Source: Minisyncoccota bacterium (GTDB lineage Bacteria; Patescibacteriota; Minisyncoccia; Phycocordibacterales; UBA12079). Taken from it: a stretch of DNA of 64,000 nucleotides. This document shows positions 291 through 35,324 of the stretch, piece by piece. The stretch lies in contig JAGLLX010000010.1 of the NCBI GenBank assembly GCA_023140255.1, positions 19,774 to 83,773 on the forward strand, written 5' to 3'. Positions within the stretch are counted from its first letter, which is position 1. Every line of letters starts with the position of its first letter. The position numbers were made by a program, and so were the translations under genes. The notes under the pieces were generated by a model, which ran no database searches, was not told the DNA's origin, and was given only the letters and a program-made list of their open reading frames with translations.

Positions 291-622
291 TTATCAACAT
301 AATCCCTCTTTAAACTTTTATTATTTACTTTTTAGTATATAAAACATTATATTTAATAGACTATAAACTAAATTATTATGGCAAAAAGAAAAACTGACTT
401 AAATAAGAAAAGTAATTTTCAAAAAACTTAAAAACTCACATAAATTTATATGAGTTTTTGTTTATTCCCCTGTATTTTACACTCTATCATTCTATAAAAT
501 GATAGAATAGAATATATTAAAAAGTTATCCTTTTTTTTAATTTGCTATTTAATATTATGAATGTACTATAGATAACAGGTAGTTTTTTGTAAAAAATTAA
601 AAGTAAACAAGGAGGTTTAAAA

Positions 623-925
623 ATGGCGTCAGAAGATATCCCTTCTCAAAAAAAAGTTAAATCTGTTTTTAAACAATTAACGAGAACAACTGCTTGGGAA
701 AGTATCTGCAGAGCAACAGATAAACAAGGTTTATATCTTTGGATAATTAGATTAAAACAAAAAGAAGGTTTTGTTACATATTCATATCTACGACGAGGCA
801 ATTTCCCTGAAGGAAGATCATTAGACACTGTAATTCATATTTCTATTTTTGATGCCCAAGGAGATATTAAAGAAAAGCGTTTAGTAGCAAAACTCAAACA
901 AGGAAAATGGAAAATTACTCCTTAA
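623..925 (+). CDS. hypothetical small protein (100 aa)
   Basis: Strong SD: aaacaaggaggtttaaaa then ATG. Flanked by related repeats at about 480-510 and 973-1000. Confidence 0.55.
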   Translation: MASEDIPSQKKVKSVFKQLTRTTAWESICRATDKQGLYLWIIRLKQKEGFVTYSYLRRGNFPEGRSLDTVIHISIFDAQGDIKEKRLVAKLKQGKWKITP

Positions 926-3254: not shown

Positions 3255-4397
3255 ATGCAAAAAAAATTTACACCCTTATTATTCCTAATGTCTTTAGGCG
3301 CTGGAGGCTTGGCTATCTCAGGCTTTTCATTTTTAAACTATACAATAAACCATGGTGAGGGTCTTGTTTATATAACTCAAATGTTGAATTTAAATTCAAC
3401 ATTTTTAGAACTTTTATTTTATAGAATGGCTGAAATAATAATGGTAGTGTTTACTCTTATCCATTTTTACTTAACTATCTATTTATTAAGAATCTATATT
3501 CCGTGGCTGAAAAGTGAAGAACATAAAATTATTAAAAACAACCCTTTAGAAAACTCTTCATTAGTTACTCCTTTTATCTCATTAATAATGACTATGAATG
3601 TATTTTTAGCGGTTATAAGATACTTTATTCCTGCGGCTGCTGAAAATTTACAAGTATTTATGTTTTCAGGTTTTATTGTTTGGTTATTATTATGGCTAGC
3701 TCTTATGAAAATAGAAATTTCTCTTCTTAAAATTTCATTTTCAAAAAGTTTTGATATCAGTAAAATTAATTTTGGATGGCTCCTGCACCCTTTTGCTTTA
3801 AGCATGTTAACTGTTACGGGTATGGGAATAGCAGCTTTGGCACAAGATTATGTTCTTGCAAGTACAGCTATGTTCCTATCACTTATCTCTGGAACTATGG
3901 GATTATTTTTACTAACAGTAAAATTAATTACATTATTTAAAAGCCACATTACAGCTCCTGGTCTTCCTGAAAAGCAATTTTTACCTAGTTTTTTGATTAT
4001 TGTTCCTAATATTACCCTTTTTGCTATTAGTTTTTTTAGATTTGGTCATTATTTAGAAAATAAAATGCATTTTGAAATGGGTTCTTATTTTATAATAGTA
4101 ATACTTATAAGCTTTGCTTTTGAAATATGGTATATGGCATTTGGAATTACTTTACTTAAAGACTACTTTAAGAAAGAAATGAGAGAAGAATTCCATATTT
4201 CTCAATGGGGATTCATTTGTCCTTTTGTAGCTTTTTCTGTTCTAGCTACTTTTGTACATAATTTATTTATCCCTTCTATCTATTTTAGTATACTAATAAT
4301 ATTAGTAATGCTATTTACATCAATTTTATTTTTCTATCTTTTAAATCGTCATTTAAAATGTGTTAAAAATAAAAAAATTAAATTTGAATGTGTATAA
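3255..4397 (+). CDS. polytopic integral membrane protein (about 10 TM), function unknown
   Basis: Highly hydrophobic 380 aa protein. No motif recognised with confidence. Confidence 0.55.
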   Translation: MQKKFTPLLFLMSLGAGGLAISGFSFLNYTINHGEGLVYITQMLNLNSTFLELLFYRMAEIIMVVFTLIHFYLTIYLLRIYIPWLKSEEHKIIKNNPLENSSLVTPFISLIMTMNVFLAVIRYFIPAAAENLQVFMFSGFIVWLLLWLALMKIEISLLKISFSKSFDISKINFGWLLHPFALSMLTVTGMGIAALAQDYVLASTAMFLSLISGTMGLFLLTVKLITLFKSHITAPGLPEKQFLPSFLIIVPNITLFAISFFRFGHYLENKMHFEMGSYFIIVILISFAFEIWYMAFGITLLKDYFKKEMREEFHISQWGFICPFVAFSVLATFVHNLFIPSIYFSILIILVMLFTSILFFYLLNRHLKCVKNKKIKFECV

Positions 4398-5446: not shown

Positions 5447-5605
5447 ATGTCACAAGATAGATTAATTAAATTAGCTTGTCAGGATTGTAAAAGAATCAAT
5501 TATTGGTCAAGTAAAAATAAGAAGTTAGTTGTTGATAAAATTGAACTCAACAAATATTGTAAATGGTGTAGAAAACACACTGTTCATAAAGAAACTAAAA
5601 AGTAA
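5447..5605 (+). CDS. rpmG: 50S ribosomal protein L33
   Basis: 52 aa translation [52 protein letters not shown] with the Cys4 L33 signature. Not in the ORF track because it is shorter than 60 aa. Confidence 0.85.
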
Positions 5606-5623
5606 ACTTATTTTTTAAGGAGG

Positions 5624-5652
5624 CGATGAGTTTTTACTCATCGTCTTTTTTT
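5624..5652 (+). terminator. rho-independent terminator after rpmG
   Basis: cgatgagt-tttt-actcatcg followed by TCTTTTTTT. Confidence 0.65.
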
Positions 5653-5697
5653 ATAGAATAATTTAGAAAAATTTGATAAAATAGGTTCAGTCAATAA

Positions 5698-5771
5698 GGG
5701 TCCATAGTTTAGTTGGTAAAACAACGGTCTCCAAAACCGTCAACCGAGGTTCGAGTCCTCGTGGACCCGCA
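5698..5771 (+). tRNA. tRNA-Trp (anticodon CCA)
   Basis: Full cloverleaf: acceptor GGGTCCA/TGGACCC, D arm GTTT..AAAC, anticodon stem ACGGT/ACCGT with loop CTCCAAA, T arm CGAGG-TTCGAGT-CCTCG. No encoded CCA. Confidence 0.9.
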
Positions 5772-5940
5772 ATAATGAAAATCATCCAATTTCATATTGA
5801 GTGATTTTTATTATCTATGATTCTAATAGGACTCGAACGGTGATAGGAAAAGGACTAAATTCCTTTTCCGAGCCGCGACCAGCAGTACTTAGTAAAATTA
5901 GAGTGAACTTTGTGAACAAATAATTTTACTTAGTAACTGT

Positions 5941-5964
5941 GGGTCGAGTCCTCGTGGACCCGCA
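5941..5964 (+). repeat. direct copy of the tRNA-Trp 3' end (23/24 nt identical to 5748-5771)
   Basis: GGGTCGAGTCCTCGTGGACCCGCA versus GGTTCGAGTCCTCGTGGACCCGCA, 193 bp downstream. A hairpin terminator follows. Confidence 0.8.
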
Positions 5965-5977
5965 AAAAGACATTTAA

Positions 5978-6001
5978 CCCCAAATGATAATTTGGGGTTT
6001 T
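5978..6001 (+). terminator. rho-independent terminator
   Basis: ccccaaat-gata-atttgggg followed by TTT. Confidence 0.6.
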
Positions 6002-6037
6002 AGTATTTTATAATCTTTATTTAATCTTAAGTTTTAA

Positions 6038-6079
6038 ATATTATATGCTGGTATTCTGCAGAATACCAGCATATAATAT
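6038..6079. promoter_or_regulatory. perfect 42-bp palindrome overlapping a -10-like TATAAT, 15 bp upstream of the ArsR-family gene
   Basis: AATATTATATGCTGGTATTCTGCAGAATACCAGCATATAATATT. Verified base by base as its own reverse complement. Candidate operator. Confidence 0.6.
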
Positions 6080-6093
6080 GATATAATTTAAAC

Positions 6094-6381
6094 ATGTATA
6101 AATATAAAAATAAAAAAACATATAGACAATTAGAAAGATTAGTCAAAGGATTTGCTAATCATAGAAGAATACAAGTAATGGAATTATTAAAAAAGAAACC
6201 TGAATTATCAGTTATAGAAATAGCAGAAGAATTAAGTGTTAATGTTAAAACAATATCTGATCATATAAAAAAATTAGCCATGTCAGGGTTAATTTTAAAA
6301 AGGAATGAATTACAATCAGTCAGGCACAAACTAACAAAAAACGGGGAACAAATTCTTAAGTTCTTGAGAACTTTAACATAA
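6094..6381 (+). CDS. ArsR/SmtB-family winged-helix transcriptional regulator
   Basis: HRRIQVMELLKKKPELSVIEIAEELSVNVKTISDHIKKLAMSGLI matches the ArsR HTH region. Confidence 0.7.
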   Translation: MYKYKNKKTYRQLERLVKGFANHRRIQVMELLKKKPELSVIEIAEELSVNVKTISDHIKKLAMSGLILKRNELQSVRHKLTKNGEQILKFLRTLT

Positions 6382-24116: not shown

Positions 24117-26567
24117 ATGATGTTTTTTAAAAAAATTATAATAATATCTATATTTTTTTTATTAAGTTTTTTTCCTATTGTCAAAATATTTGCTGATACA
24201 ACAACTTATAATTTTTCAGGAGTGAATACAGGGAACGATGGAATAAACGAAAATCCAATTGTCATAGAACACGATTCTGATATTTTTCCATGGACAACCT
24301 TGGCTGAACAAAATGATTCAGCTAATCCCACTGACGTTGAATATGTGAATATATCTACAGATAATACATCTCAATGGGCAACTGACGACCCTGGGAGAAA
24401 GGATGAAATGGCAATAACTTATAAATTTTTTATTCAAGAAACTATAAGTGATATTTCTAATATTCAGATAAAATGGAACGGAAATACAGACGGGACTTCC
24501 TCCAGTAATCATTCTGTTTGGTTAAGAAAAGACGGCCTAGATGAATTCGGAGGAATAAATACTTGGGTGCAACTAGGGACTTCTCTCTCTATTCCTCAAG
24601 ATATTGATACTGATTTAATTAGAAATTTAACTACTGATTTTGCTACTTATATTAATGCTTCTACAGGACAATTTGAATTTGTTATTACAACAGATAGAGA
24701 ATCAGAAGATATGCGGACAAATTATATTGAAATTATTACTACTTATACTGTAATCCCTCCAGCTGACACAACTCCTCCATCAGCAATTTTAGATTTAAGT
24801 TCTTCAAACGCAACAACTAATTCAATTGATTTATCTTGGACAGCCGTTGGAGATGACAACTTAACGGGATTAGCCTCAAGTTATGATATTAGATATGCAA
24901 TTTCTCCAATTACAGAATCAAATTGGTCTTCTGCTACTCAAGTTTCTGGAGAACCTTCTCCTTCTATAGGAGGGTCTTCTGAATTAATGACTGTTTCGGG
25001 ACTTAACTCTAATACTACATATTATTTCGCAATTAAGACTTCTGATGAGGTTCCTAATGAATCAATAATTTCCAACGTTCCATCAGAAACAACAAACACA
25101 ATTCCACCTATTCCTGACACTACCCCACCATCTGATATTTCAGACTTAGCAAGTTTTGGAGCAACAACTAGTTCAATTGAATTAAATTGGACAGCCGTTG
25201 GAGATGACAACTTAACGGGATTAGCCTCAAGTTATGATATTAGATATGCAATTTCTCCAATTACAGAATCAAATTGGTCTTCTGCTACTCAAGTTTCTGG
25301 AGAACCTTCTCCTTCTATAGGAGGGTCTTCTGAATTAATGACTGTTTCGGGACTAAACCCAGATACTCTTTATCACTTTGCAATTAAAAGTTCTGACGAA
25401 GTCCCCAACGAATCAGAGATTTCAAATGCAACCAGTCTTAGCACAGATGACACTCCTCTAGTTTCAGATACTACCCCACCATCTGATATCTCTGACCTAA
25501 GCCCTTCAAACGCAACAACTAATTCAATTGATTTATCTTGGACAGCCGTTGGAGATGACAACTTAACGGGATTAGCCTCAAGTTATGATGTCAGATATTC
25601 AACAACTGCTGTTACAGAATCTAGTTGGTCTTCTGCTACCTTAGCTATTGGGGAGCCCAATCCATCTTCCCCAGGAAGTTCTGAATCTTTTAGTATTACA
25701 AATATTCCTTCTGAGACTACATATTATTTTGCCATTAAAACTTCCGATGAATCAAATAATCAATCAACAATTTCGAATATTCCTTCTTTAAGTACTTTAG
25801 CAGAATCCAGTGTATCTATTCCTACAAATGTATCAGGAGGAGTCTCCGCAACTAGTGTAATTTTTTCCGGACTAGCTTATCCTAATAGTAAAATTATAGT
25901 AAGGTTCAAAGACTCAGTTAACCCTCTTTATAATAATGTTCCTCTTTCAACTTATTCAATTTCTAGTTCTGGAGAATTTTATGTAAGCTACGCAGCTTTA
26001 CTAAGTGGAGCATATTTTTTCACTCTACAAGCACAAGATAAAGACAACCAAAAAACAGATGTTCTTTCTTTCAATGTAGATTTTCGTACAGATAAAAAGT
26101 TAATGGTAGAAGATATTTTCTTTAGTCCAACTATAAGTTTTAATCAAGATTTATTACGTTTAAGTGATGCTTTAGAAATTCATGGATATTCATCCCCAAA
26201 TTCCAAAATAAAATTAGAAATAGATGATATAATATTAAATGAAACTATTTCTGATAAAATTGGTTATTATTCATTTGAATTCAGCCCCGGAGATTTTACC
26301 TTAGGAGTTCATTACGCTAGAGTTAGCCAAAACAAAGATGATAGAGAAAGCAATTACACTTCTCCACGAAGTTTTAAAGTAACTTCTTTAACATACCCTC
26401 GAGCAGATTTTAATAGAGATAATTCCGTTGATGTTACTGATTGGAGTGTTTTCTTATACCGCTGGGGAGATATGGAAAATAATTTACGAAATGAAATTGA
26501 CTTAGACTCTAATGGGATAATTGACATTGGTGACTTTAGTATATTTTTAAAAGCAATTAAATTATAA
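24117..26567 (+). CDS. secreted protein with three tandem Fn3-like repeats and a C-terminal dockerin-like module
   Basis: Signal/TM at the N-terminus. Three roughly 117-aa repeats (TTPPSDISDL...WTAVGDDNLTGLASSYDIRY...YYFAIK). C-terminal DFNRDNSVDVTDWSVF...DLDSNGIIDIGDFSIF matches the duplicated calcium-binding dockerin repeat pattern. Confidence 0.65.
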   Translation: MMFFKKIIIISIFFLLSFFPIVKIFADTTTYNFSGVNTGNDGINENPIVIEHDSDIFPWTTLAEQNDSANPTDVEYVNISTDNTSQWATDDPGRKDEMAITYKFFIQETISDISNIQIKWNGNTDGTSSSNHSVWLRKDGLDEFGGINTWVQLGTSLSIPQDIDTDLIRNLTTDFATYINASTGQFEFVITTDRESEDMRTNYIEIITTYTVIPPADTTPPSAILDLSSSNATTNSIDLSWTAVGDDNLTGLASSYDIRYAISPITESNWSSATQVSGEPSPSIGGSSELMTVSGLNSNTTYYFAIKTSDEVPNESIISNVPSETTNTIPPIPDTTPPSDISDLASFGATTSSIELNWTAVGDDNLTGLASSYDIRYAISPITESNWSSATQVSGEPSPSIGGSSELMTVSGLNPDTLYHFAIKSSDEVPNESEISNATSLSTDDTPLVSDTTPPSDISDLSPSNATTNSIDLSWTAVGDDNLTGLASSYDVRYSTTAVTESSWSSATLAIGEPNPSSPGSSESFSITNIPSETTYYFAIKTSDESNNQSTISNIPSLSTLAESSVSIPTNVSGGVSATSVIFSGLAYPNSKIIVRFKDSVNPLYNNVPLSTYSISSSGEFYVSYAALLSGAYFFTLQAQDKDNQKTDVLSFNVDFRTDKKLMVEDIFFSPTISFNQDLLRLSDALEIHGYSSPNSKIKLEIDDIILNETISDKIGYYSFEFSPGDFTLGVHYARVSQNKDDRESNYTSPRSFKVTSLTYPRADFNRDNSVDVTDWSVFLYRWGDMENNLRNEIDLDSNGIIDIGDFSIFLKAIKL
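24765..25818 (+). repeat. intragenic tandem DNA repeat, about 351 bp x 3
   Basis: Units start at about 24765, 25116 and 25467. About 165 bp is identical between units 1 and 2 (24837-25001 versus 25189-25353). Unit 3 is more diverged. Confidence 0.8.
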
Positions 26568-32542: not shown

Positions 32543-33544
32543 TTATAAACTGAAATCACTTAAAGAATACAATTCTTCATCATTTTCATCTTCAGATTGT
32601 GTAGCTGTAAAAGTATTGTCATTCTCACTTAACATTTCTTCTCTTTCATTTTTAATAAAATCAGGATTGTTTTTTTCAAAATTATTTAAAATTATATTTG
32701 CATCATTTTCGACAGCTATTTCATTTTTTAGAATACCAACTATTTTTTTAATATCATCATTAGTAAAGAAATCAATAACTAATTTTCCTCCTGTCTTTTT
32801 CTTTTCTATTTGAACCCTAGTTCCTAATGACTCTGCCAAAGTTTCTTCAAACTCCATTAATTCTGGATCAATAGCAAAATCTTTTTTTCTAACTTTATCA
32901 TAAGCAATTCTTCTCGCTATTTTTTCAGAGTCTCTAACTGACATCTTTTTATAAATGATCTCTTTATATAATGTCATTTGTTCTTGAGGACGATCTTTTA
33001 GCATTAAAATTGGTCTTGTATGCCCTTCAAGAATTTGTCCACTAGCAACAGCTTCCATAATTTCCTCAGGTAAAGCTAAAAGTCTCATTGTATTAGTTAC
33101 ATATTCACGACTTTTTCCCACCTTCTTTCCAATATCAATATGTTTTAAACTGAATTCTTCAATCAACCTCTCAAATGCTTTCGCTCTATCAATAGGGTTT
33201 AAATCTTCTCTTTGTAAATTTTCAATGATAGCTAACTCTAATCTCAAAGCATCGTCTCCTTCATCATCATGAATAATCACAGGGACCTGTGCTAAACCTG
33301 CTAATTTAGAAGCTCTTAATCTTCTTTCTCCAGCAATTAATTCATAAACAGTAGTTAATCCCCCATCCTCCTTTTGTTCTTCTCTACGAGTAACTACTAA
33401 AGGTTGCAATACACCGTATTGCCTAATTGATTCTGATAAAGAATTTAATTTTAGATGATCAAATTCTCGTCTTGGTTGAAAAGGGTTAGGGTTTATTTTT
33501 TCTACTTCTATCCAGTAAATGGAACTATCTTTTTGGTATGACAT
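32543..33544 (-). CDS. parB: ParB/Spo0J-family partition protein with an acidic C-terminal tail
   Basis: LQPLVVTRRE...YELIAGERRLRASKLAGLAQVPVII matches the ParB box region. Confidence 0.8.
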   Translation of the reverse strand: MSYQKDSSIYWIEVEKINPNPFQPRREFDHLKLNSLSESIRQYGVLQPLVVTRREEQKEDGGLTTVYELIAGERRLRASKLAGLAQVPVIIHDDEGDDALRLELAIIENLQREDLNPIDRAKAFERLIEEFSLKHIDIGKKVGKSREYVTNTMRLLALPEEIMEAVASGQILEGHTRPILMLKDRPQEQMTLYKEIIYKKMSVRDSEKIARRIAYDKVRKKDFAIDPELMEFEETLAESLGTRVQIEKKKTGGKLVIDFFTNDDIKKIVGILKNEIAVENDANIILNNFEKNNPDFIKNEREEMLSENDNTFTATQSEDENDEELYSLSDFSL

Positions 33545-33656
33545 GTTTAGTTATTAAATTATATATTATGTCTTTTATTTTAACATAAAAATTAAATTAT
33601 TGAAAAAAAAGGTTAATTACTCTATAATACTAAAATAGATTTAATTAATTGTGCCT

Positions 33657-33740
33657 GCCGGAGTGGCGGAATTGGTAGACGCGCACGACTCAAAATCGTG
33701 TAGGGCAACCTGTGAGAGTTCGATTCTCTCCTCCGGCACA
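33657..33740 (+). tRNA. tRNA-Leu (anticodon CAA), type II
   Basis: Acceptor GCCGGAG/CTCCGGC, anticodon stem CACGA/TCGTG with loop CTCAAAA, long variable arm, T arm GAGAG-TTCGATT-CTCTC. Confidence 0.85.
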
Positions 33741-33919
33741 TAAAACAAAGAACCCAAAGCATTTAGCTTTGGGTAATTTTGTTTTAGTGTTGAGGAGTAA
33801 ATCGAAACGAACGAAGTATATTTTCCGTAATGAAGTGAAGGAAAATACGAGTGAGCGGGGTCGCGAGTTCTTAACGAAGACGAGTCTGCAAGGCGAAGTC
33901 TGAGTTTAGAACTGGAGAC

Positions 33920-33944
33920 CGATTCTCTCCTCCGGCACATAAAA
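33920..33944 (+). repeat. direct copy of the tRNA-Leu 3' end plus trailer (25/25 nt identical to 33721-33745)
   Basis: CGATTCTCTCCTCCGGCACATAAAA repeated 199 bp downstream. Confidence 0.8.
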
Positions 33945-33949
33945 TAATA

Positions 33950-34430
33950 CTTATCCAAAAAAGCTTGACAAATATTTTAGATATGTTATTTTTATGTACA
34001 GTTGTATCTTTTGTGGAAGTAAAGAATTTGTTGGGCTGTCTGACAAATATCTTAATTTCACATCCAAAAAGGAGAAAGGCTATGAAAAAGCTCTGGAAAT
34101 CAACAGCAAACCCGCCCGGGTCAACAAGCAAATCTTTTAAAATAATTTTTGATTCCGCCGCCCCCGGTCACGGACCCGATACCGCCACCCAAAAACGAGA
34201 ATGACGGCGATAATCCGGTCCAGCACCGATCCTTCCTCCAACGATGGAGTCGATACGGATCGGTGCTTGCAGTAAAAGGTTTTGGTGGAGTCCTAATATT
34301 AAGAGGATGTGGAAGCCAGAGTCTTGGGAGAAACGAGTATTCACCCTCTCCCAAAAATGAATGTATGTCGTAGTAGCCGACCAAAAAAAGTTACTATCCG
34401 GTGACATTAATCTGTCACCCAACCCCTCAG
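33950..34430. other. GC-rich anomalous segment, probably a non-coding structured element, unassigned
   Basis: Locally very GC-rich tracts (for example GATTCCGCCGCCCCCGGTCACGGACCCGATACCGCCACCC) in a roughly 30% GC genome. Overlapping ORFs in all six frames with nonsense translations. Internal 10-bp stems such as gcaccgatcc...ggatcggtgc. Ends at a GC-rich terminator. Confidence 0.3.
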
Positions 34431-34466
34431 GGGCGCCCAATCATAATTGGGGCGCCCCTTTTTTAT
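34431..34466 (+). terminator. GC-rich rho-independent terminator
   Basis: aggggcgcccaat-cat-aattggggcgcccc followed by TTTTTT. Confidence 0.7.
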
Positions 34467-34631
34467 ATTTAAAATGTCGGCTACCATATAGCCAGCATTC
34501 AATATTTTGGGGTTTTACTATTCCAGTTAACTGGAATAGTAAAGACCAAAATACTAAACTTCTCACAGAAATAAACAAAATTTAAATTTGTTCATACTAA
34601 AAACTAATTACTATAAACTAACTTACTGAAG

Positions 34632-34706
34632 TGAGCCACCTGTCAGATTCGAACTGACGACCTACGGTTTACAAAACCGTTGCTCTACCAACTGAGCTAA
34701 GGTGGC
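34632..34706 (-). tRNA. tRNA-Thr (anticodon TGT)
   Basis: Minus strand: GCCACCT-TA-GCTC-AGTTGGTAGA-GC-A-ACGGT-TTTGTAA-ACCGT-AGGTC-GTCAG-TTCGAAT-CTGAC-AGGTGGC-T. Confidence 0.85.
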
Positions 34707-34882
34707 TTGATGTTTAATTATGTTATCATATTTTCAATAAATCTAAAACCGTTGCTCCGCCTATTTCCTATCTCGCTATCGCTCGATAACGGAAATTTTT
34801 TCTTTTAGAAAAATCGGATGAAAAACAAGTAGGTTTGTTTTTCCTTCAACTGCCCGTCCAAGACGGGTCAGCCTTGGGCTGA

Positions 34883-34922
34883 AGCTAAGATGGCTTGGTG
34901 TTTAATTATATTATCATATTTT
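34883..34922 (-). repeat. direct copy of the tRNA-Thr 5' end plus about 26 nt of its upstream (promoter-side) sequence (about 36/40 identical to 34695-34734)
   Basis: AGCTAAGATGGCTTGGTGTTTAATTATATTATCATATTTT versus AGCTAAGGTGGCTTGATGTTTAATTATGTTATCATATTTT, 188 bp away. Confidence 0.75.
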
Positions 34923-34937
34923 TCTAGAAATTCAATA

Positions 34938-35324
34938 CTAAAATCTTAGTTCATCTCTATCCTCTAAAGCCTTATTTTTATGTTCTTCTATATTTTTTAA
35001 ATAATCTGAATTAGGTGCCGCAATTTTTTGTTTATATAATTTATCAATCTGATTATTAGTTCTTTTAATTATTTTATTTTTAAGTAAAATAACTTTTCTT
35101 TTAATTTTAAATAAAAATTCTGTTCCCTCCAATAGCAATAAAATCAAAAGTTTTTTTAAATATTTTCTCAATAAAAGAAATAATTTTTCAAAAAAATCAT
35201 CGCTTCTTTGCATAAATCCAGAACTTACAAAATTCATCCAAAATTTTAATCTAGACCCTTTGAAAATAAGCATCAAACAAACAAGAATCCCTGATATTAA
35301 TATACTTACTATTAAATAAATCAT
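34938..35324 (-). CDS. hypothetical small membrane protein
   Basis: N-terminal TM helix followed by a K-rich region. Lies upstream of tsf on the same strand. Confidence 0.4.
   Translation of the reverse strand: MIYLIVSILISGILVCLMLIFKGSRLKFWMNFVSSGFMQRSDDFFEKLFLLLRKYLKKLLILLLLEGTEFLFKIKRKVILLKNKIIKRTNNQIDKLYKQKIAAPNSDYLKNIEEHKNKALEDRDELRF

Follow-up and report, generated by a model that had tools for sequence, protein, structure and literature searches.

Partial tRNA copies in Patescibacteria DNA as probable arms of small, protein-less structured elements with an RtT-like architecture

The partial tRNA copies found at tRNA genes of Patescibacteria are probably the arms of structured, protein-less elements of ~120–200 nt, which resemble the RtT units of E. 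coli and spread beside gene ends. A unit lies just behind a gene, almost always that of a tRNA, on the same strand and after a short flank and a terminator-like hairpin; its left arm is the reverse complement of the last 9–20 nt of the gene, and its right arm a direct copy of the same end. Because these arms pair with each other and close the structure, the partial tRNA is a structural part as well as a duplicated gene end. The starting point was a stretch of 64,000 nt from a Minisyncoccota bacterium (GCA_023140255.1, contig JAGLLX010000010.1, positions 19,774 to 83,773 of the forward strand), the whole of which is referred to as the window hereafter. All of the data come from MAGs and metagenomes, and the loci fetched for comparison are numbered with L.

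Fifteen families of short-range direct repeats were found in the window, and the only long pairs among them that are neither coding nor of low complexity are those of tRNA-Leu, tRNA-Thr, and tRNA-Trp (Table 1). The Leu pair, CGATTCTCTCCTCCGGCACATAAAA, is located at 33721–33745 and 33920–33944 (25/25 identical, offset 199), and stretches to 33 nt at 91% identity (33716–33748 vs 33915–33947). The Trp pair, TCGAGTCCTCGTGGACCCGCAA at 5751 and 5944, is exact over 22/22 nt (offset 193). In the Thr pair (34695–34734 vs 34883–34922, offset 188), 37 of the 40 nt (93%) are identical, and the likeness reaches ~4 nt deeper into the tRNA when one 1-nt indel is allowed (CTGA-GCT vs CTGAAGCT). Exact repeats of 22–25 nt are far beyond chance. 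Three other assemblies contain the stretch 33651–34935 (1285 nt) unchanged, and a fourth contains its Leu and Thr parts (L001–L004), which rules out an assembly artefact. The repeat comparison confirmed the three pairs at the places given in a preliminary description of this DNA, in which the Thr identity had been counted as 36/40. The scan of tRNAs for partial copies suggested there was run on the window: three of the six tRNAs have a copy, while no direct or inverted copy of at least 10 nt was found within ~450–500 nt of the Ile, Ser, and Leu-TAG tRNAs. The same description had stressed that all copies lie on the right-hand side at a constant spacing of 188–199 bp. The side is correct as to the coordinates, but it is a coincidence of strand, since the Leu and Trp copies are downstream of the 3′ end and the Thr copy is upstream of the 5′ end. 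The spacing loses its striking character for Leu and Trp, where it is the modular length of an element: most copies have ~52 nt between the tRNA end and the core, and the core itself measures ~115–140 nt.

Table 1. Positions of the features at the three tRNA genes with partial copies (coordinates of the window)
Feature	Position	Strand	Basis
tRNA-Leu(CAA), intact, CCA not encoded	33657..33739	+	ARAGORN; Rfam tRNA 60 bits
Direct repeat copy 1: T-loop 3′ part, T-stem 3′ strand, acceptor 3′ strand, discriminator, ~9 nt of tRNA-Leu flank	33716..33748	+	Repeat search (D6)
Intrinsic-terminator-like hairpin ACCCAAAGCATTTAGCTTTGGGT and T run, between tRNA-Leu and element	33752..33774	+	Hairpin seen in sequence
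Leu left arm GTGTTGAGGAGTAAATCGAA: degenerate reverse complement of tRNA-Leu 3′ end/T-loop; 5′ strand of P1	33787..33806	+	MFE fold pairs with 33920–33939; model alignment
Leu three-way-junction core: GAAACGAACG, P2 hairpin, GAGTGAGCGGGGTCGCGAGTTCTTAA, long P3 hairpin, AACTGGAGAC	33807..33919	+	R1, R2, fold
Leu right arm: second tRNA-Leu 3′ copy, 25 nt exact plus flank; 3′ strand of P1	33920..33947	+	Repeat search, arm table
tRNA-Trp(CCA), intact	5698..5770	+	ARAGORN; Rfam tRNA
Trp element: left arm AGGACTCGAAC, core, right-arm start	5823..5957	+	R2 match
Trp right arm: 22-nt exact tRNA-Trp 3′ copy	5944..5965	+	Repeat search, arm table
Terminator after Trp right arm	5976–5999		
tRNA-Thr(TGT), intact	34633..34706	-	ARAGORN; Rfam tRNA
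Thr proximal copy: partial promoter (-10 region) and tRNA-Thr nt 1–12	34695..34734	-	Repeat search (D5); empty site L032
13-nt direct copy of tRNA-Thr nt 22–34, GAGCAACGGTTTT on the tRNA strand	34745..34757	-	Repeat comparison, fold
Thr insertion core: four or five hairpins, including UUUCCGUUAUCGAGCGAUAGCGAGAUAGGAAA	34758..34882	-	Fold z -3.5
Thr distal copy: original promoter and tRNA-Thr nt 1–12, 37/40 to proximal copy	34883..34922	-	Repeat search; L032 comparison

The Leu and Trp segments are homologous and form one family. The segments had been described as sharing no obvious similarity; nevertheless, both are matched by a single covariance model, R2, from whose training set the Trp copy was absent. 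The Leu element scored 33.9 bits (E 4e-8) with the model R1, in whose construction it had no part, and 52.6 bits (E 5.5e-14, for 33792–33932) with R2, and the Trp element scored 26.8 bits with R2 (E 4.8e-6; filters off, whole window). The fold z-scores were -5.1 for Leu and -6.7 for Trp. The Leu core is 77% identical to the core at L009, and the Trp element is 72% identical to unit 2 of L037. No ORF exists inside the elements.

Another feature of these two segments, overlooked in the preliminary description, is an inverted copy of the T-loop and T-stem that pairs with the direct copy. It is degenerate in Leu (GAGGAGTAAATCGAA at about 33792–33806), while in Trp the left arm AGGACTCGAAC at 5828–5838 is the reverse complement of nt 52–62 of the tRNA (11 nt). 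The terminator-like hairpin behind tRNA-Leu is the centre of a long imperfect palindrome composed of the 3′ part of the tRNA and the left arm.

The model R1 was built from seven metagenome or MAG copies (a seven-sequence alignment with model-based realignment), and covariance searching yielded ~20 more copies in low-GC Patescibacteria DNA. The hosts are Leu, Trp, Thr, Tyr, Ser, Pro, Gly, and Gln tRNAs and one topA 3′ end, with the same core lineage occurring behind different tRNAs; the loci other than those anchored by ParB, a small ORF, or a permease were found by the core motif, and are thus a biased sample with regard to tRNA association. The general layout is as follows: the tRNA, ~52 nt of flank with a terminator hairpin, the left arm, a three-way-junction core, and a right arm that copies the tRNA 3′ end. 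The element is always downstream of the tRNA and co-oriented with it. The left arm complements the T-loop and T-stem, from T54 via the 3′ strand of the T-stem and often through the acceptor strand too. The arms match the adjoining tRNA in the Leu(CAA), Leu(GAG), Trp, Thr, Tyr, Ser, Pro, and Gln copies, and the only exception among the copies compared is a large-variant copy behind tRNA-Gly, where no clear match was seen. At a G·U pair of the Gln copy, the left arm is the complement of the 3′ strand and not the 5′ strand of the tRNA. The duplicated lengths vary (9, 14, 19, 22, 25, 57, and 88 nt), tandem arrays occur at L012, L028, and L037, and carriage is patchy (2/6 tRNAs in the window and 4/17 in the loci fetched through ParB). 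Five copies (L020, L025, L012b, L008, and L024) carry an extra hairpin in the left arm, precisely where acceptor and T-stem meet, which results in a tRNA-like shape. Related loci also contained degenerate tRNA copies that lack a core: L008 and L032 have a pseudo-tRNA-Thr, L032 has a 3′ copy of tRNA-Ile as well, and L011 and L025 have 5′-half copies.

The core is conserved across lineages of 31–44% GC, and covariation supports its structure: 91.5% of the alignment cells are paired, as compared with 74.9 ± 1.2% in shuffled and 34–47% in slid controls. Double changes are found in 21 of the 28 pairs, and one G·U pair is conserved in 13 of the 16 sequences. The excess of GU/UG pairs (26) over AC/CA pairs (9) in the family alignment indicates that the folding strand is the tRNA-sense strand. 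A conserved secondary structure had been named in advance as favouring an RNA gene; the covariation and the folds reveal such a structure, and it favours an RNA-like element.

These results bear on the possibility that no common element exists and that the copies reflect chance similarity or plain tandem duplication of tRNA-flanking DNA. The core-less copies in L008, L032, L011, and L025 indicate that the tRNA loci of these genomes are duplication-prone, and the Thr insert has no detectable homolog; both would suit such an origin. Against it stand the exact repeats of 22–25 nt, the Trp match obtained outside the training set, and the strong covariation. For Leu and Trp this possibility is already refuted, and on the whole we find it scarcely credible.

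The topA copy (L012, 4776–4891), the only case seen at a protein gene, is informative with regard to the arms. The last 19 codons of topA are duplicated there with 10 nucleotide differences, all of which are synonymous. The arms are not tRNA-like, yet they follow the same complementary design, and the complement of the target spans the insertion point (TAGTTTTGGTG vs CACCAAAACTA). An analogy of GTTCGAA to integron attC/R-box sites was rejected, as the topA target does not contain GTTCGAA.

Comparison with sister genomes, also suggested in the preliminary description, clarified that the elements are gained and lost. The tRNA-Leu site is empty in L007 and L032 and filled in L009, and the tRNA-Thr site is empty in L032. 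The idea of small tRNA-associated insertions flanked by a duplicated gene end is supported. The DNA past the right arm of L009 is 85% identical to the native flank of L007; this comparison and the topA case point to an incoming gene end that would be element-borne or foreign. In the sister MAG of L037, whose ParB is 90% identical to that of the window, a Leu-type core lies behind tRNA-Trp. It is 75–79% identical to the Leu cores of the window and L009, and it stands in tandem with the ortholog of the Trp element of the window, with a period of 200. An 88-nt unit including the terminator and left arm is duplicated at this locus (87/88), which looks like local duplication or gene conversion. A Leu origin of the flank and terminator there was considered and dropped, because the pairwise identities (0.71 vs 0.73) do not discriminate.

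From these observations, we infer that the units spread in the form of DNA, inserting or recombining inside the duplicated gene end. The gene would stay intact and keep a complete end, together with its terminator in the 3′ type and its promoter in the 5′ type (Thr). The folded strand, most likely a read-through transcript as with E. coli RtT/RttR, would be under selection. The closing helix, which is tRNA-like, may help processing or stability, and targets may be selected through base pairing of the left arm. Transcription of the core is not assured, because in most copies a terminator-like hairpin separates it from the tRNA.

The 178-bp repeats behind E. coli tyrT, called RtT, were already known in the late 1970s, and we know of no report that RtT is mobile. 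We examined its units on NC_000913; the tyrT-tyrV locus of E. coli, where it follows tRNA-Tyr, is the only place at which RtT (RF00391) was seen in this study. The correspondence in architecture is extensive. The E. coli units lie directly behind the tRNA on the same strand after a ~60-nt spacer, and consist of a T-arm complement (22 nt, 86%), followed by a multibranched core and, at the end, a copy of the 3′ end of the tRNA. In the Rfam consensus, it is exactly the complement arm and the copy arm that pair to close the structure. The units are arranged head to tail in both cases, with a period of 178 in E. coli and about 200 in L037. Thus, each part of the RtT architecture is found in the present family: a position behind a tRNA, a closing helix of complement and copy, a multibranched core, and head-to-tail repeats. 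A hairpin of RtT, CG-AGCGAAAG-CG-AGA, has matching counterparts in the Patescibacteria family (GAGCGnAGCGAA, at the tip of P3) and in the Thr insert (CGAGCGATAGCGAGA). Differences are also clear: the core topology and the conserved junction sequences are unlike those of the Patescibacteria family, which accompanies at least eight species of tRNA and one protein gene, with arms that fit the respective neighbour nearly every time, and most of whose copies have an intrinsic terminator hairpin before the core. RF00391 (gathering threshold 45 bits) gave no match at E ≤ 10 on 33500–35000 and 5600–6100 of the window, and none at E ≤ 5 on L019, L027, L028, and L029, whereas the E. coli units, as the positive control, scored 133–137 bits; conversely, model R2 gave only 4–5 bits on the RtT units. 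The elements are therefore closest to RtT in architecture, with no detectable homology. As to its expression, a passage of PMC3318445 that cites Bosl & Kersten (1991) describes RtT RNA as a processed by-product of the tRNA transcript. Elevated mobilome coverage at E. coli rttR is reported in 10.1101/2024.07.17.603846, and a stringent-response phenotype has also been reported for RtT.

This correspondence raises the alternative that the elements are immobile host ncRNA genes of the RtT type, which arose by local duplication of a tRNA end, are co-transcribed with the tRNA and set free by tRNA-processing enzymes through recognition of the tRNA-like closing helix, and act in tRNA metabolism or stress; presence and absence would then reflect only loss by recombination between direct repeats. 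RttR is a known processed product of the E. coli tyrT operon (PMC3318445; bioRxiv 10.1101/2024.07.17.603846), the strong conservation and covariation of the core and its constant position and orientation would suit such a gene, as would the five tRNA-like left-arm hairpins, and direct repeats make precise loss easy. However, homologous cores sit behind at least eight tRNA species and topA, almost always with matching arms, which excludes independent local duplications. Moreover, a Leu-type core has come to lie behind tRNA-Trp in a close relative, the topA copy keeps the design with no tRNA-like arms, and only some tRNAs carry an element, patchily among close relatives. We regard this alternative as unlikely, and prefer the reading in which the units spread.

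Scars of tyrosine-integrase islands offer another explanation: an island would have integrated at the T-loop and regenerated the gene, and would later have been mostly deleted, leaving attL and attR ~190 bp apart. Islands that integrate at a T-loop sublocation of tRNA genes were reportedly described by Williams in 2002, and the duplicated block seen here, which begins in the T-loop and ends a few nt past the 3′ end, is what they would be expected to leave. It is established that islands restore the gene that they split, and that the displaced fragment marks the island end (Islander, PMC4383910; tRNA fragments, PMC9897764). As in islands and prophages, where the replacement end keeps the target intact and the displaced fragment lies at the far boundary (PMC4383910), a regenerated gene and a displaced fragment are both found here, and the tandem arrays resemble serial accretion at one tRNA. 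However, the ~190 bp hold no ORF and neither an integrase nor its remnant; the elements are 100 times smaller than islands, and a single core family has many targets. With at least eight target tRNAs, an equal number of integrase specificities would have to exist in very small genomes, and random deletion would not leave the same covarying ~115-nt core at ~20 sites. A conserved single-strand structure, with an inverted gene-end copy that pairs with the direct copy, is foreign to att scars, and the searches of IMG/VR, INPHARED phages, and PLSDB plasmids revealed no copy. This origin is thus highly improbable. The serial integration scars of the preliminary description are likewise too weak an account, since the closing helix has the tRNA copy as its 3′ strand: in the older tandem copies L012a/b, which are decayed, the right arm keeps only the paired 8–9 nt.

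A Pfam search of 20 ORFs of the window yielded no recombinase, transposase, reverse transcriptase, or homing endonuclease, and none was recognised by eye in the ORFs beside 11 other copies, which look like ordinary housekeeping genes; the genes flanking the elements are unrelated housekeeping genes. A LAGLIDADG gene behind the sister tRNA-Leu was rejected as a mobiliser, since it occurs with no element in L007, L008, and L032, and the window has the element with no such gene. As for a viral origin, two IMG/VR pattern scans gave 0 and 2 matches, neither of the latter being confirmed by the covariance model, and BLAST gave no copy in the phage and plasmid collections. Rfam, at gathering and permissive thresholds (E ≤ 10 on 33500–35000 and 5600–6100 of the window), returned only tRNAs, which excludes Y RNA, tmRNA, and similar families; a group I intron and the known self-cleaving ribozymes (hammerhead, twister, twister-sister, pistol, hatchet, HDV-like) had no match at E ≤ 10 either. 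A hammerhead reading of GAAA/CUGGAGA was discarded because, on visual inspection, CUGANGA/GAAA are arranged differently from a hammerhead. Priming by tRNA ends, another earlier suggestion, is contradicted by the arms, which copy the genomic flank (CACATAAAA; in left arms too, TTTTGTGCCAGAG in L012b) and not CCA; a mature tRNA acting as a PBS-like primer was rejected for the same reason. Since the flank is present in both arms, the template was the gene or the primary transcript, not the mature tRNA. No description of the element was found in literature searches.

Among known small mobile sequences, MITEs, Correia, RPE, and REP/PATE elements are likewise small, non-coding, repeated, foldable, and patchy between strains. 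Unlike them, the present elements have neither fixed terminal inverted repeats nor a short target-site duplication of fixed length (9–88 nt here); their inverted repeat is target sequence, which changes with the target, and their location beside gene ends is strictly site-specific. Group I introns of Patescibacteria tRNA genes are structured RNA insertions of the same phylum tied to tRNA genes, and the T-loop of tmRNA is a known group I intron site (PMC13011429); here, in contrast, the tRNA is uninterrupted, the element lies outside the mature tRNA, and the ~115-nt core is too small and has no Rfam match.

Guidance by base pairing is known from group II introns (EBS/IBS), IS110 (bridge RNA), and IS200/IS605 (guide tetranucleotide), and the P1 of the 5′ ribozyme of the R2 retrotransposon includes 28S target sequence. 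To our knowledge, none of these duplicates 20–60 nt of its target. The elements resemble them in that a segment is complementary to the target across the insertion point (in tRNAs, T54 onward), and differ in that the arms pair with each other once integrated. As regards guide RNAs such as the IS110 bridge RNA and the TnpB/IscB omega RNA, the segments that match the target lie in the closing helix and not in loops, and no effector was seen beside any copy or among 20 ORFs of the window scanned with Pfam. The likeness serves as a lead. The R2 retrotransposon is co-transcribed with its host gene (PMC3414825). It is possible, though doubtful, that the elements form a new class of protein-less, base-pair-targeted mobile units with the left arm as guide, of which RtT would be a domesticated or fossil relative. 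The folded core would then recruit a trans-acting host enzyme or be itself catalytic, and insertion would regenerate the gene end; the T-loop 9-mer TTCGAGTCC, common to tRNA-Leu and tRNA-Trp, would explain the jump from Leu to Trp in L037.

The Thr segment stands apart. It is a separate 188-bp insertion at the D-loop with a duplicated promoter and 5′ end, and it is not a detectable member of the family. Its bounds were set against the empty site of L032: the proximal copy, part of the functional gene, belongs to the insertion, and the flank upstream of the distal copy is orthologous to the promoter of that sister genome. In the fold, 34745–34757 pairs in a D-stem-like manner with nt 10–14 of the distal copy and closes the insert. 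The insert 34735–34882 gave no match with model R2 at E ≤ 10, and BLAST against all fetched loci gave no homolog. The insert lies upstream of the tRNA and its arms are D-stem strands, which sets it outside the family; the only common feature is the GAGCG..GCGA motif at the tip of the hairpin UUUCCGUUAUCGAGCGAUAGCGAGAUAGGAAA (34772–34784), which occurs once in the window as compared with 0.03 expected. At the D-loop, the insertion follows the gene-end-replacing logic of the family, to which it is only loosely related through this motif. Alternatively, it is possibly an unrelated sequence caught in a partial duplication.

RtT has so far lacked a clear origin or function. The present results reveal that its design, a core closed by the complement and the copy of a tRNA 3′ end, is widespread in an unrelated, genome-reduced phylum, where the elements occur on many tRNAs and a protein gene, are gained and lost between sister genomes, and are able to change target. 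RtT thereby becomes a class member open to comparative genomics instead of a one-off curiosity, and a source is found for the tRNA fragments that confuse tRNA annotation in MAGs. A testable possibility is also raised: very small, nucleic-acid-guided DNA insertion beside essential genes that is harmless to these genes. If true, the reading of the left arm as a guide would account for the 45-year-old oddity of RtT.

Three of the six tRNAs in the window (30% GC), on which ARAGORN and Rfam agree, are accompanied by a partial copy of one of their ends, and the three repeat pairs noted in the preliminary description were confirmed (see the table). For the remaining three tRNAs, no direct or inverted copy of at least 10 nt was found within about 450–500 nt. 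Three other assemblies contain the region 33651–34935 in exactly identical form, and a fourth contains the Leu and Thr parts of it.

Positions and identities of the repeats and associated features (window positions unless a related locus, Lnnn, is named)
Feature	Position (strand)	Offset	Identity or sequence
tRNA-Leu repeat pair		199	25/25; 33 nt at 91% when extended
tRNA-Thr repeat pair		188	37/40
tRNA-Trp repeat pair		193	22/22
Terminator-like hairpin, Leu element	33752-33774		
Left arm, Trp element	5828-5838		AGGACTCGAAC
Family copy at topA 3′ end	L012 4776-4891 (-)		
topA	L012 4924-6597 (-)		
Tandem array	L028 1400-1990 (-)		
Ser(ACT)-type tRNA	L020 2125-2212; L027 197-284		
LAGLIDADG gene	L007 ~600-1240; L008 3173-3808; L009; L032 5204-5794		
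tRNA-Leu partial copy	L014 ~3500-3840		
tRNA-Thr-like copy	L008 2733-2824; L032 4510-4596		
tRNA-Ile-associated copy	L032 ~560-710		
GC-rich unit	33965-34455 (+); L032 4700-5200 (-)		
Palindrome	6038-6079		ATATTATATGCTGGTATTCTGCAGAATACCAGCATATAATAT
Tandem 351-bp repeats	24760-25777		77-91%

On the tRNA strand, the segments behind tRNA-Leu(CAA) and tRNA-Trp(CCA) share one order of parts from 5′ to 3′: a few nucleotides of flank, a terminator-like hairpin, a left arm, a GC-richer core, and the direct copy of the tRNA 3′ end (the right arm). The left arm is the reverse complement of the T-loop and the 3′ strand of the T-stem; in the Leu element this complement is degenerate, yet it extends to the acceptor strand and the flank. 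In the predicted fold, pairing between the arms closes a three-way junction with the hairpins P2 and P3, with z-scores of −5.1 (Leu) and −6.7 (Trp) relative to shuffled sequences. Rfam found only tRNAs on these segments, even at E ≤ 10, and no ORF lies inside any unit of the family.

In all of the related loci collected via the neighbouring ParB gene, tRNA-Leu(CAA) adjoins parB. A homologous element is present in L009, where its arms fit that locus's own, different, tRNA-Leu T-arm, and L012 carries two elements in tandem; behind tRNA-Leu, no element was found in L007, L008, L010, L011, or L013–L016. When metagenomes were scanned for the conserved core motif, eight low-GC loci of the same architecture emerged. 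Six of them have an intact tRNA just upstream (Leu-GAG, Ser-like type-II, Ser-GCT, Trp, Gln, or Gly), while in L028 the units form a tandem array that lacks an intact tRNA. Seven of these copies were used to build a covariance model (R1), which matched the window Leu element with 33.9 bits and revealed additional copies that follow Tyr, Pro, Gly, Thr, and Trp tRNAs. A second model (R2), built from 16 matches with the window Trp sequence left out of the training set, matched the Trp element (26.8 bits, E 4.8e-6) in a search of the whole window with filters off; the same search did not match the Thr insert. The earlier impression that the intervening segments share no similarity is thus wrong for Leu and Trp, since one covariance model matches both.

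Some of the loci contain further peculiarities. The L028 array comprises three family units of two subtypes, whose arms derive from a tRNA with the acceptor GCGGAGA and the T-arm GGCGAG..CTCGCC; that tRNA is intact nowhere on the 2.5-kb contig, and only a fragment ending in CTATCTCCGCA precedes the array. In L020 and L027, a type-II tRNA with a long variable arm, read by ARAGORN as Ser with the anticodon ACT (loop TTACTAA), an unusual decoding identity, adjoins a normal tRNA-Ser(GCT) and has a family element behind it.

In the 16-sequence alignment, which was fitted to the model and is hence biased toward the structure, 91.5% of the cells were paired as compared with 74.9 ± 1.2 after shuffling and 34–47% with slid partners; the slid controls and the out-of-training Trp match mitigate this bias. 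Both-side changes were found in 21 of the 28 pairs. GU/UG pairs outnumber AC/CA pairs (26 vs 9) and the G·U pair at the P3 base is retained in 13 of 16 sequences; therefore, the folding strand is the tRNA-sense strand. The unpaired junction nucleotides GAAAGACGGAAC, GUGAGUCGGGG, and GUGAC are strongly conserved.

Where a copy has an adjacent tRNA, the right arm nearly always reproduces the sequence of this tRNA starting at C56, to which the left arm is complementary; the exception is a large-variant copy behind tRNA-Gly in L023, for which no clear match was found. In the left arm of the Gln copy, the nucleotide opposite U64 is A, whereas the 5′ strand of the tRNA itself has G there; this arm thus derives from the tRNA 3′ strand. 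The arms carry genomic flank, not CCA (CACATAAAA in the Leu element and TTTTGTGCCAGAG in L012b). The tRNA end and the core are 50–53 nt apart in most copies, and this fixed distance together with the core length explains the constant spacing of 190–200 nt. In several copies, the left arm carries an additional hairpin precisely where its acceptor and T-stem parts join, the larger variant (L023 and L028) has an additional 5′ domain, and in L012a/b the right arm has decayed to the 8–9 paired nucleotides.

The elements show clear signs of mobility and retargeting. The comparison of sister genomes that the preliminary description had proposed revealed empty and filled sites: the tRNA-Leu site is empty in L007 and L032 and filled in L009, and the tRNA-Thr site is empty in L032. 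The DNA past the L009 right arm is the ortholog of that directly past tRNA-Leu in L007 (85% vs 76% for the other copy), and runs on into the same promoter and LAGLIDADG ORF as in L007. In topA (DNA topoisomerase I) of L012, the 3′ end carries a family copy, the left arm of which is complementary to CACCAAAACTA, across the duplication boundary. The final 19 topA codons are present in two copies, which differ at 10 nucleotides within 7 codons, and every difference is synonymous (TCA/AGC and CGC/AGA are among them); the copies therefore diverged under coding constraint, i.e. in different lineages. The L009/L007 comparison and topA favour the view that the gene end nearest the gene is att-type and element-borne. 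Local duplication or gene conversion is favoured by L037, a locus from the same MAG as L007 (the L007 ParB is 90% identical to that of the window), where an 88-nt block made up of the tRNA 3′ part, the flank, the terminator, and the left arm occurs twice (87/88). Retargeting is seen at this locus, where two 200-nt units lie behind tRNA-Trp: unit 1 has a core of the Leu type (75–79% identity to those of the Leu elements in the window and L009), and unit 2 is the ortholog of the window Trp element with a decayed right arm. The T-loop string TTCGAGTCC is common to the tRNA-Leu of this lineage and tRNA-Trp, and the inner left arm pairs with it. The terminator similarities did not discriminate between an element-borne gene end and local duplication.

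A homing-endonuclease gene and a candidate for another were also seen at tRNA-Leu. A free-standing LAGLIDADG gene lies directly behind tRNA-Leu(CAA) in four loci, starting 3 nt past it in L008; it is missing in the window, where the Leu right arm abuts DNA matching the end of that ORF in L032. In L014, the full tRNA-Leu gene is preceded, at a distance of about 350 nt, by a copy of its nt 2–36; the small ORF in between is GIY-YIG-like by eye (YIGRT...), and the arrangement would be a homing-endonuclease element likewise duplicating the tRNA 5′ half.

At tRNA-Thr, the promoter in L032 is followed directly by the gene, and the distal Thr copy of the window bears an upstream flank orthologous to that of L032; therefore, the 188 bp between the Thr copies is an insertion into the D-loop region. 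It supplies an additional −10 region and repeats nt 1–12 of the tRNA. On the tRNA strand, the insert folds with z of −3.5 relative to shuffles and is closed by D-stem strands (distal nt 10–14 pair with a 13-nt copy of nt 22–34); one hairpin tip is CGAGCGAUAGCGAGA. The window contains the motif GAGCG-N(1-4)-GCGAR a single time (0.03 expected); its other occurrences are at P3 tips within the family and in each of the four E. coli RtT units. The insert is not a detectable family member, and it has no homolog among the fetched loci. A different insertion, of about 115 nt, occupies the identical D-loop site in L008, again with the promoter and 5′ end duplicated. We read the Thr case as the gene-end-replacing logic of the family acting on the 5′ side, the element responsible being distantly related or unrelated.

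Other tRNA-like copies were found in these loci. Directly past tRNA-Thr in L008 and L032, degenerate second copies start at about nt 6 and keep the T-arm and 3′ end, with the anticodon arm swapped for another hairpin; they are conserved between the two genomes with compensatory changes, and ARAGORN reads the L008 copy as tRNA-Ser(act). A similar copy behind tRNA-Ile in L032 has a 34-nt exact 3′ copy. Between the Leu element and tRNA-Thr of the window lies a GC-rich unit of about 430–490 nt. Its promoter (TTGACA-16-TATTTT at 33965) is strong, as is its terminator (GGGGCGCCC..GGGCGCCCC followed by a T run, ~34426–34455). The unit is conserved in L032 (blocks CTGCAGTAAAAGGTTTTGGTGGAG, compensatory changes in the terminator stem); conservation does not extend to its small ORF, which an RBS precedes. 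Rfam gave no match, and the unit is probably an undescribed ncRNA. The segment between the Trp element terminator and an HTH regulator ORF (by eye) contains a perfect 19-bp palindrome, the loop of which is 4 nt long; it may serve as an operator or as a bidirectional terminator. Finally, three tandem repeats lie within the 816-aa ORF 24117–26567, an fn3/Big-like surface protein.

With regard to the origin, a domain search of 20 window ORFs revealed no recombinase, RT, or endonuclease, the ORFs flanking other copies resemble ordinary housekeeping genes by eye, and no copy was found in IMG/VR, INPHARED, or PLSDB. Islands that target tRNAs restore the gene and leave a displaced fragment (PMC4383910, PMC9897764); the elements share this gene regeneration and displaced fragment, whereas all other defining island features are absent. 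The favoured mechanism would be insertion or recombination at the gene end, assisted by base pairing, and selection may act on the read-through transcript. The preliminary suggestions of small tRNA-targeting insertions with long target duplications and of an RNA gene were each partly right.

The closest counterpart in design is the E. coli tyrT–tyrV locus, which we retrieved and analysed. Its 178-bp RtT repeats (RF00391) score 133–137 bits, and each ends with a tRNA-Tyr 3′ copy. A 22-nt stretch of the unit, 86% complementary to the T-arm, lies about 60 nt past the preceding tRNA or tRNA copy; in the RF00391 consensus, this stretch and the 3′ copy pair, closing a multibranched core with a CG-AGCGAAAG-CG hairpin. 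The design is shared with the window elements, but homology is undetectable in either direction. The window elements are therefore termed RtT-like, with reference to their architecture, rather than members of RF00391. PMC3318445, citing Bosl & Kersten 1991, documents RttR as the RNA product of one repeat unit, and a mobilome study reported elevated coverage of the rttR region under stress, calling its mode of action unknown (10.1101/2024.07.17.603846). A recent survey of Patescibacteria tRNA introns contains no description of these elements (PMC13011429). Overall, the elements add a new and widespread variant to the RtT kind.
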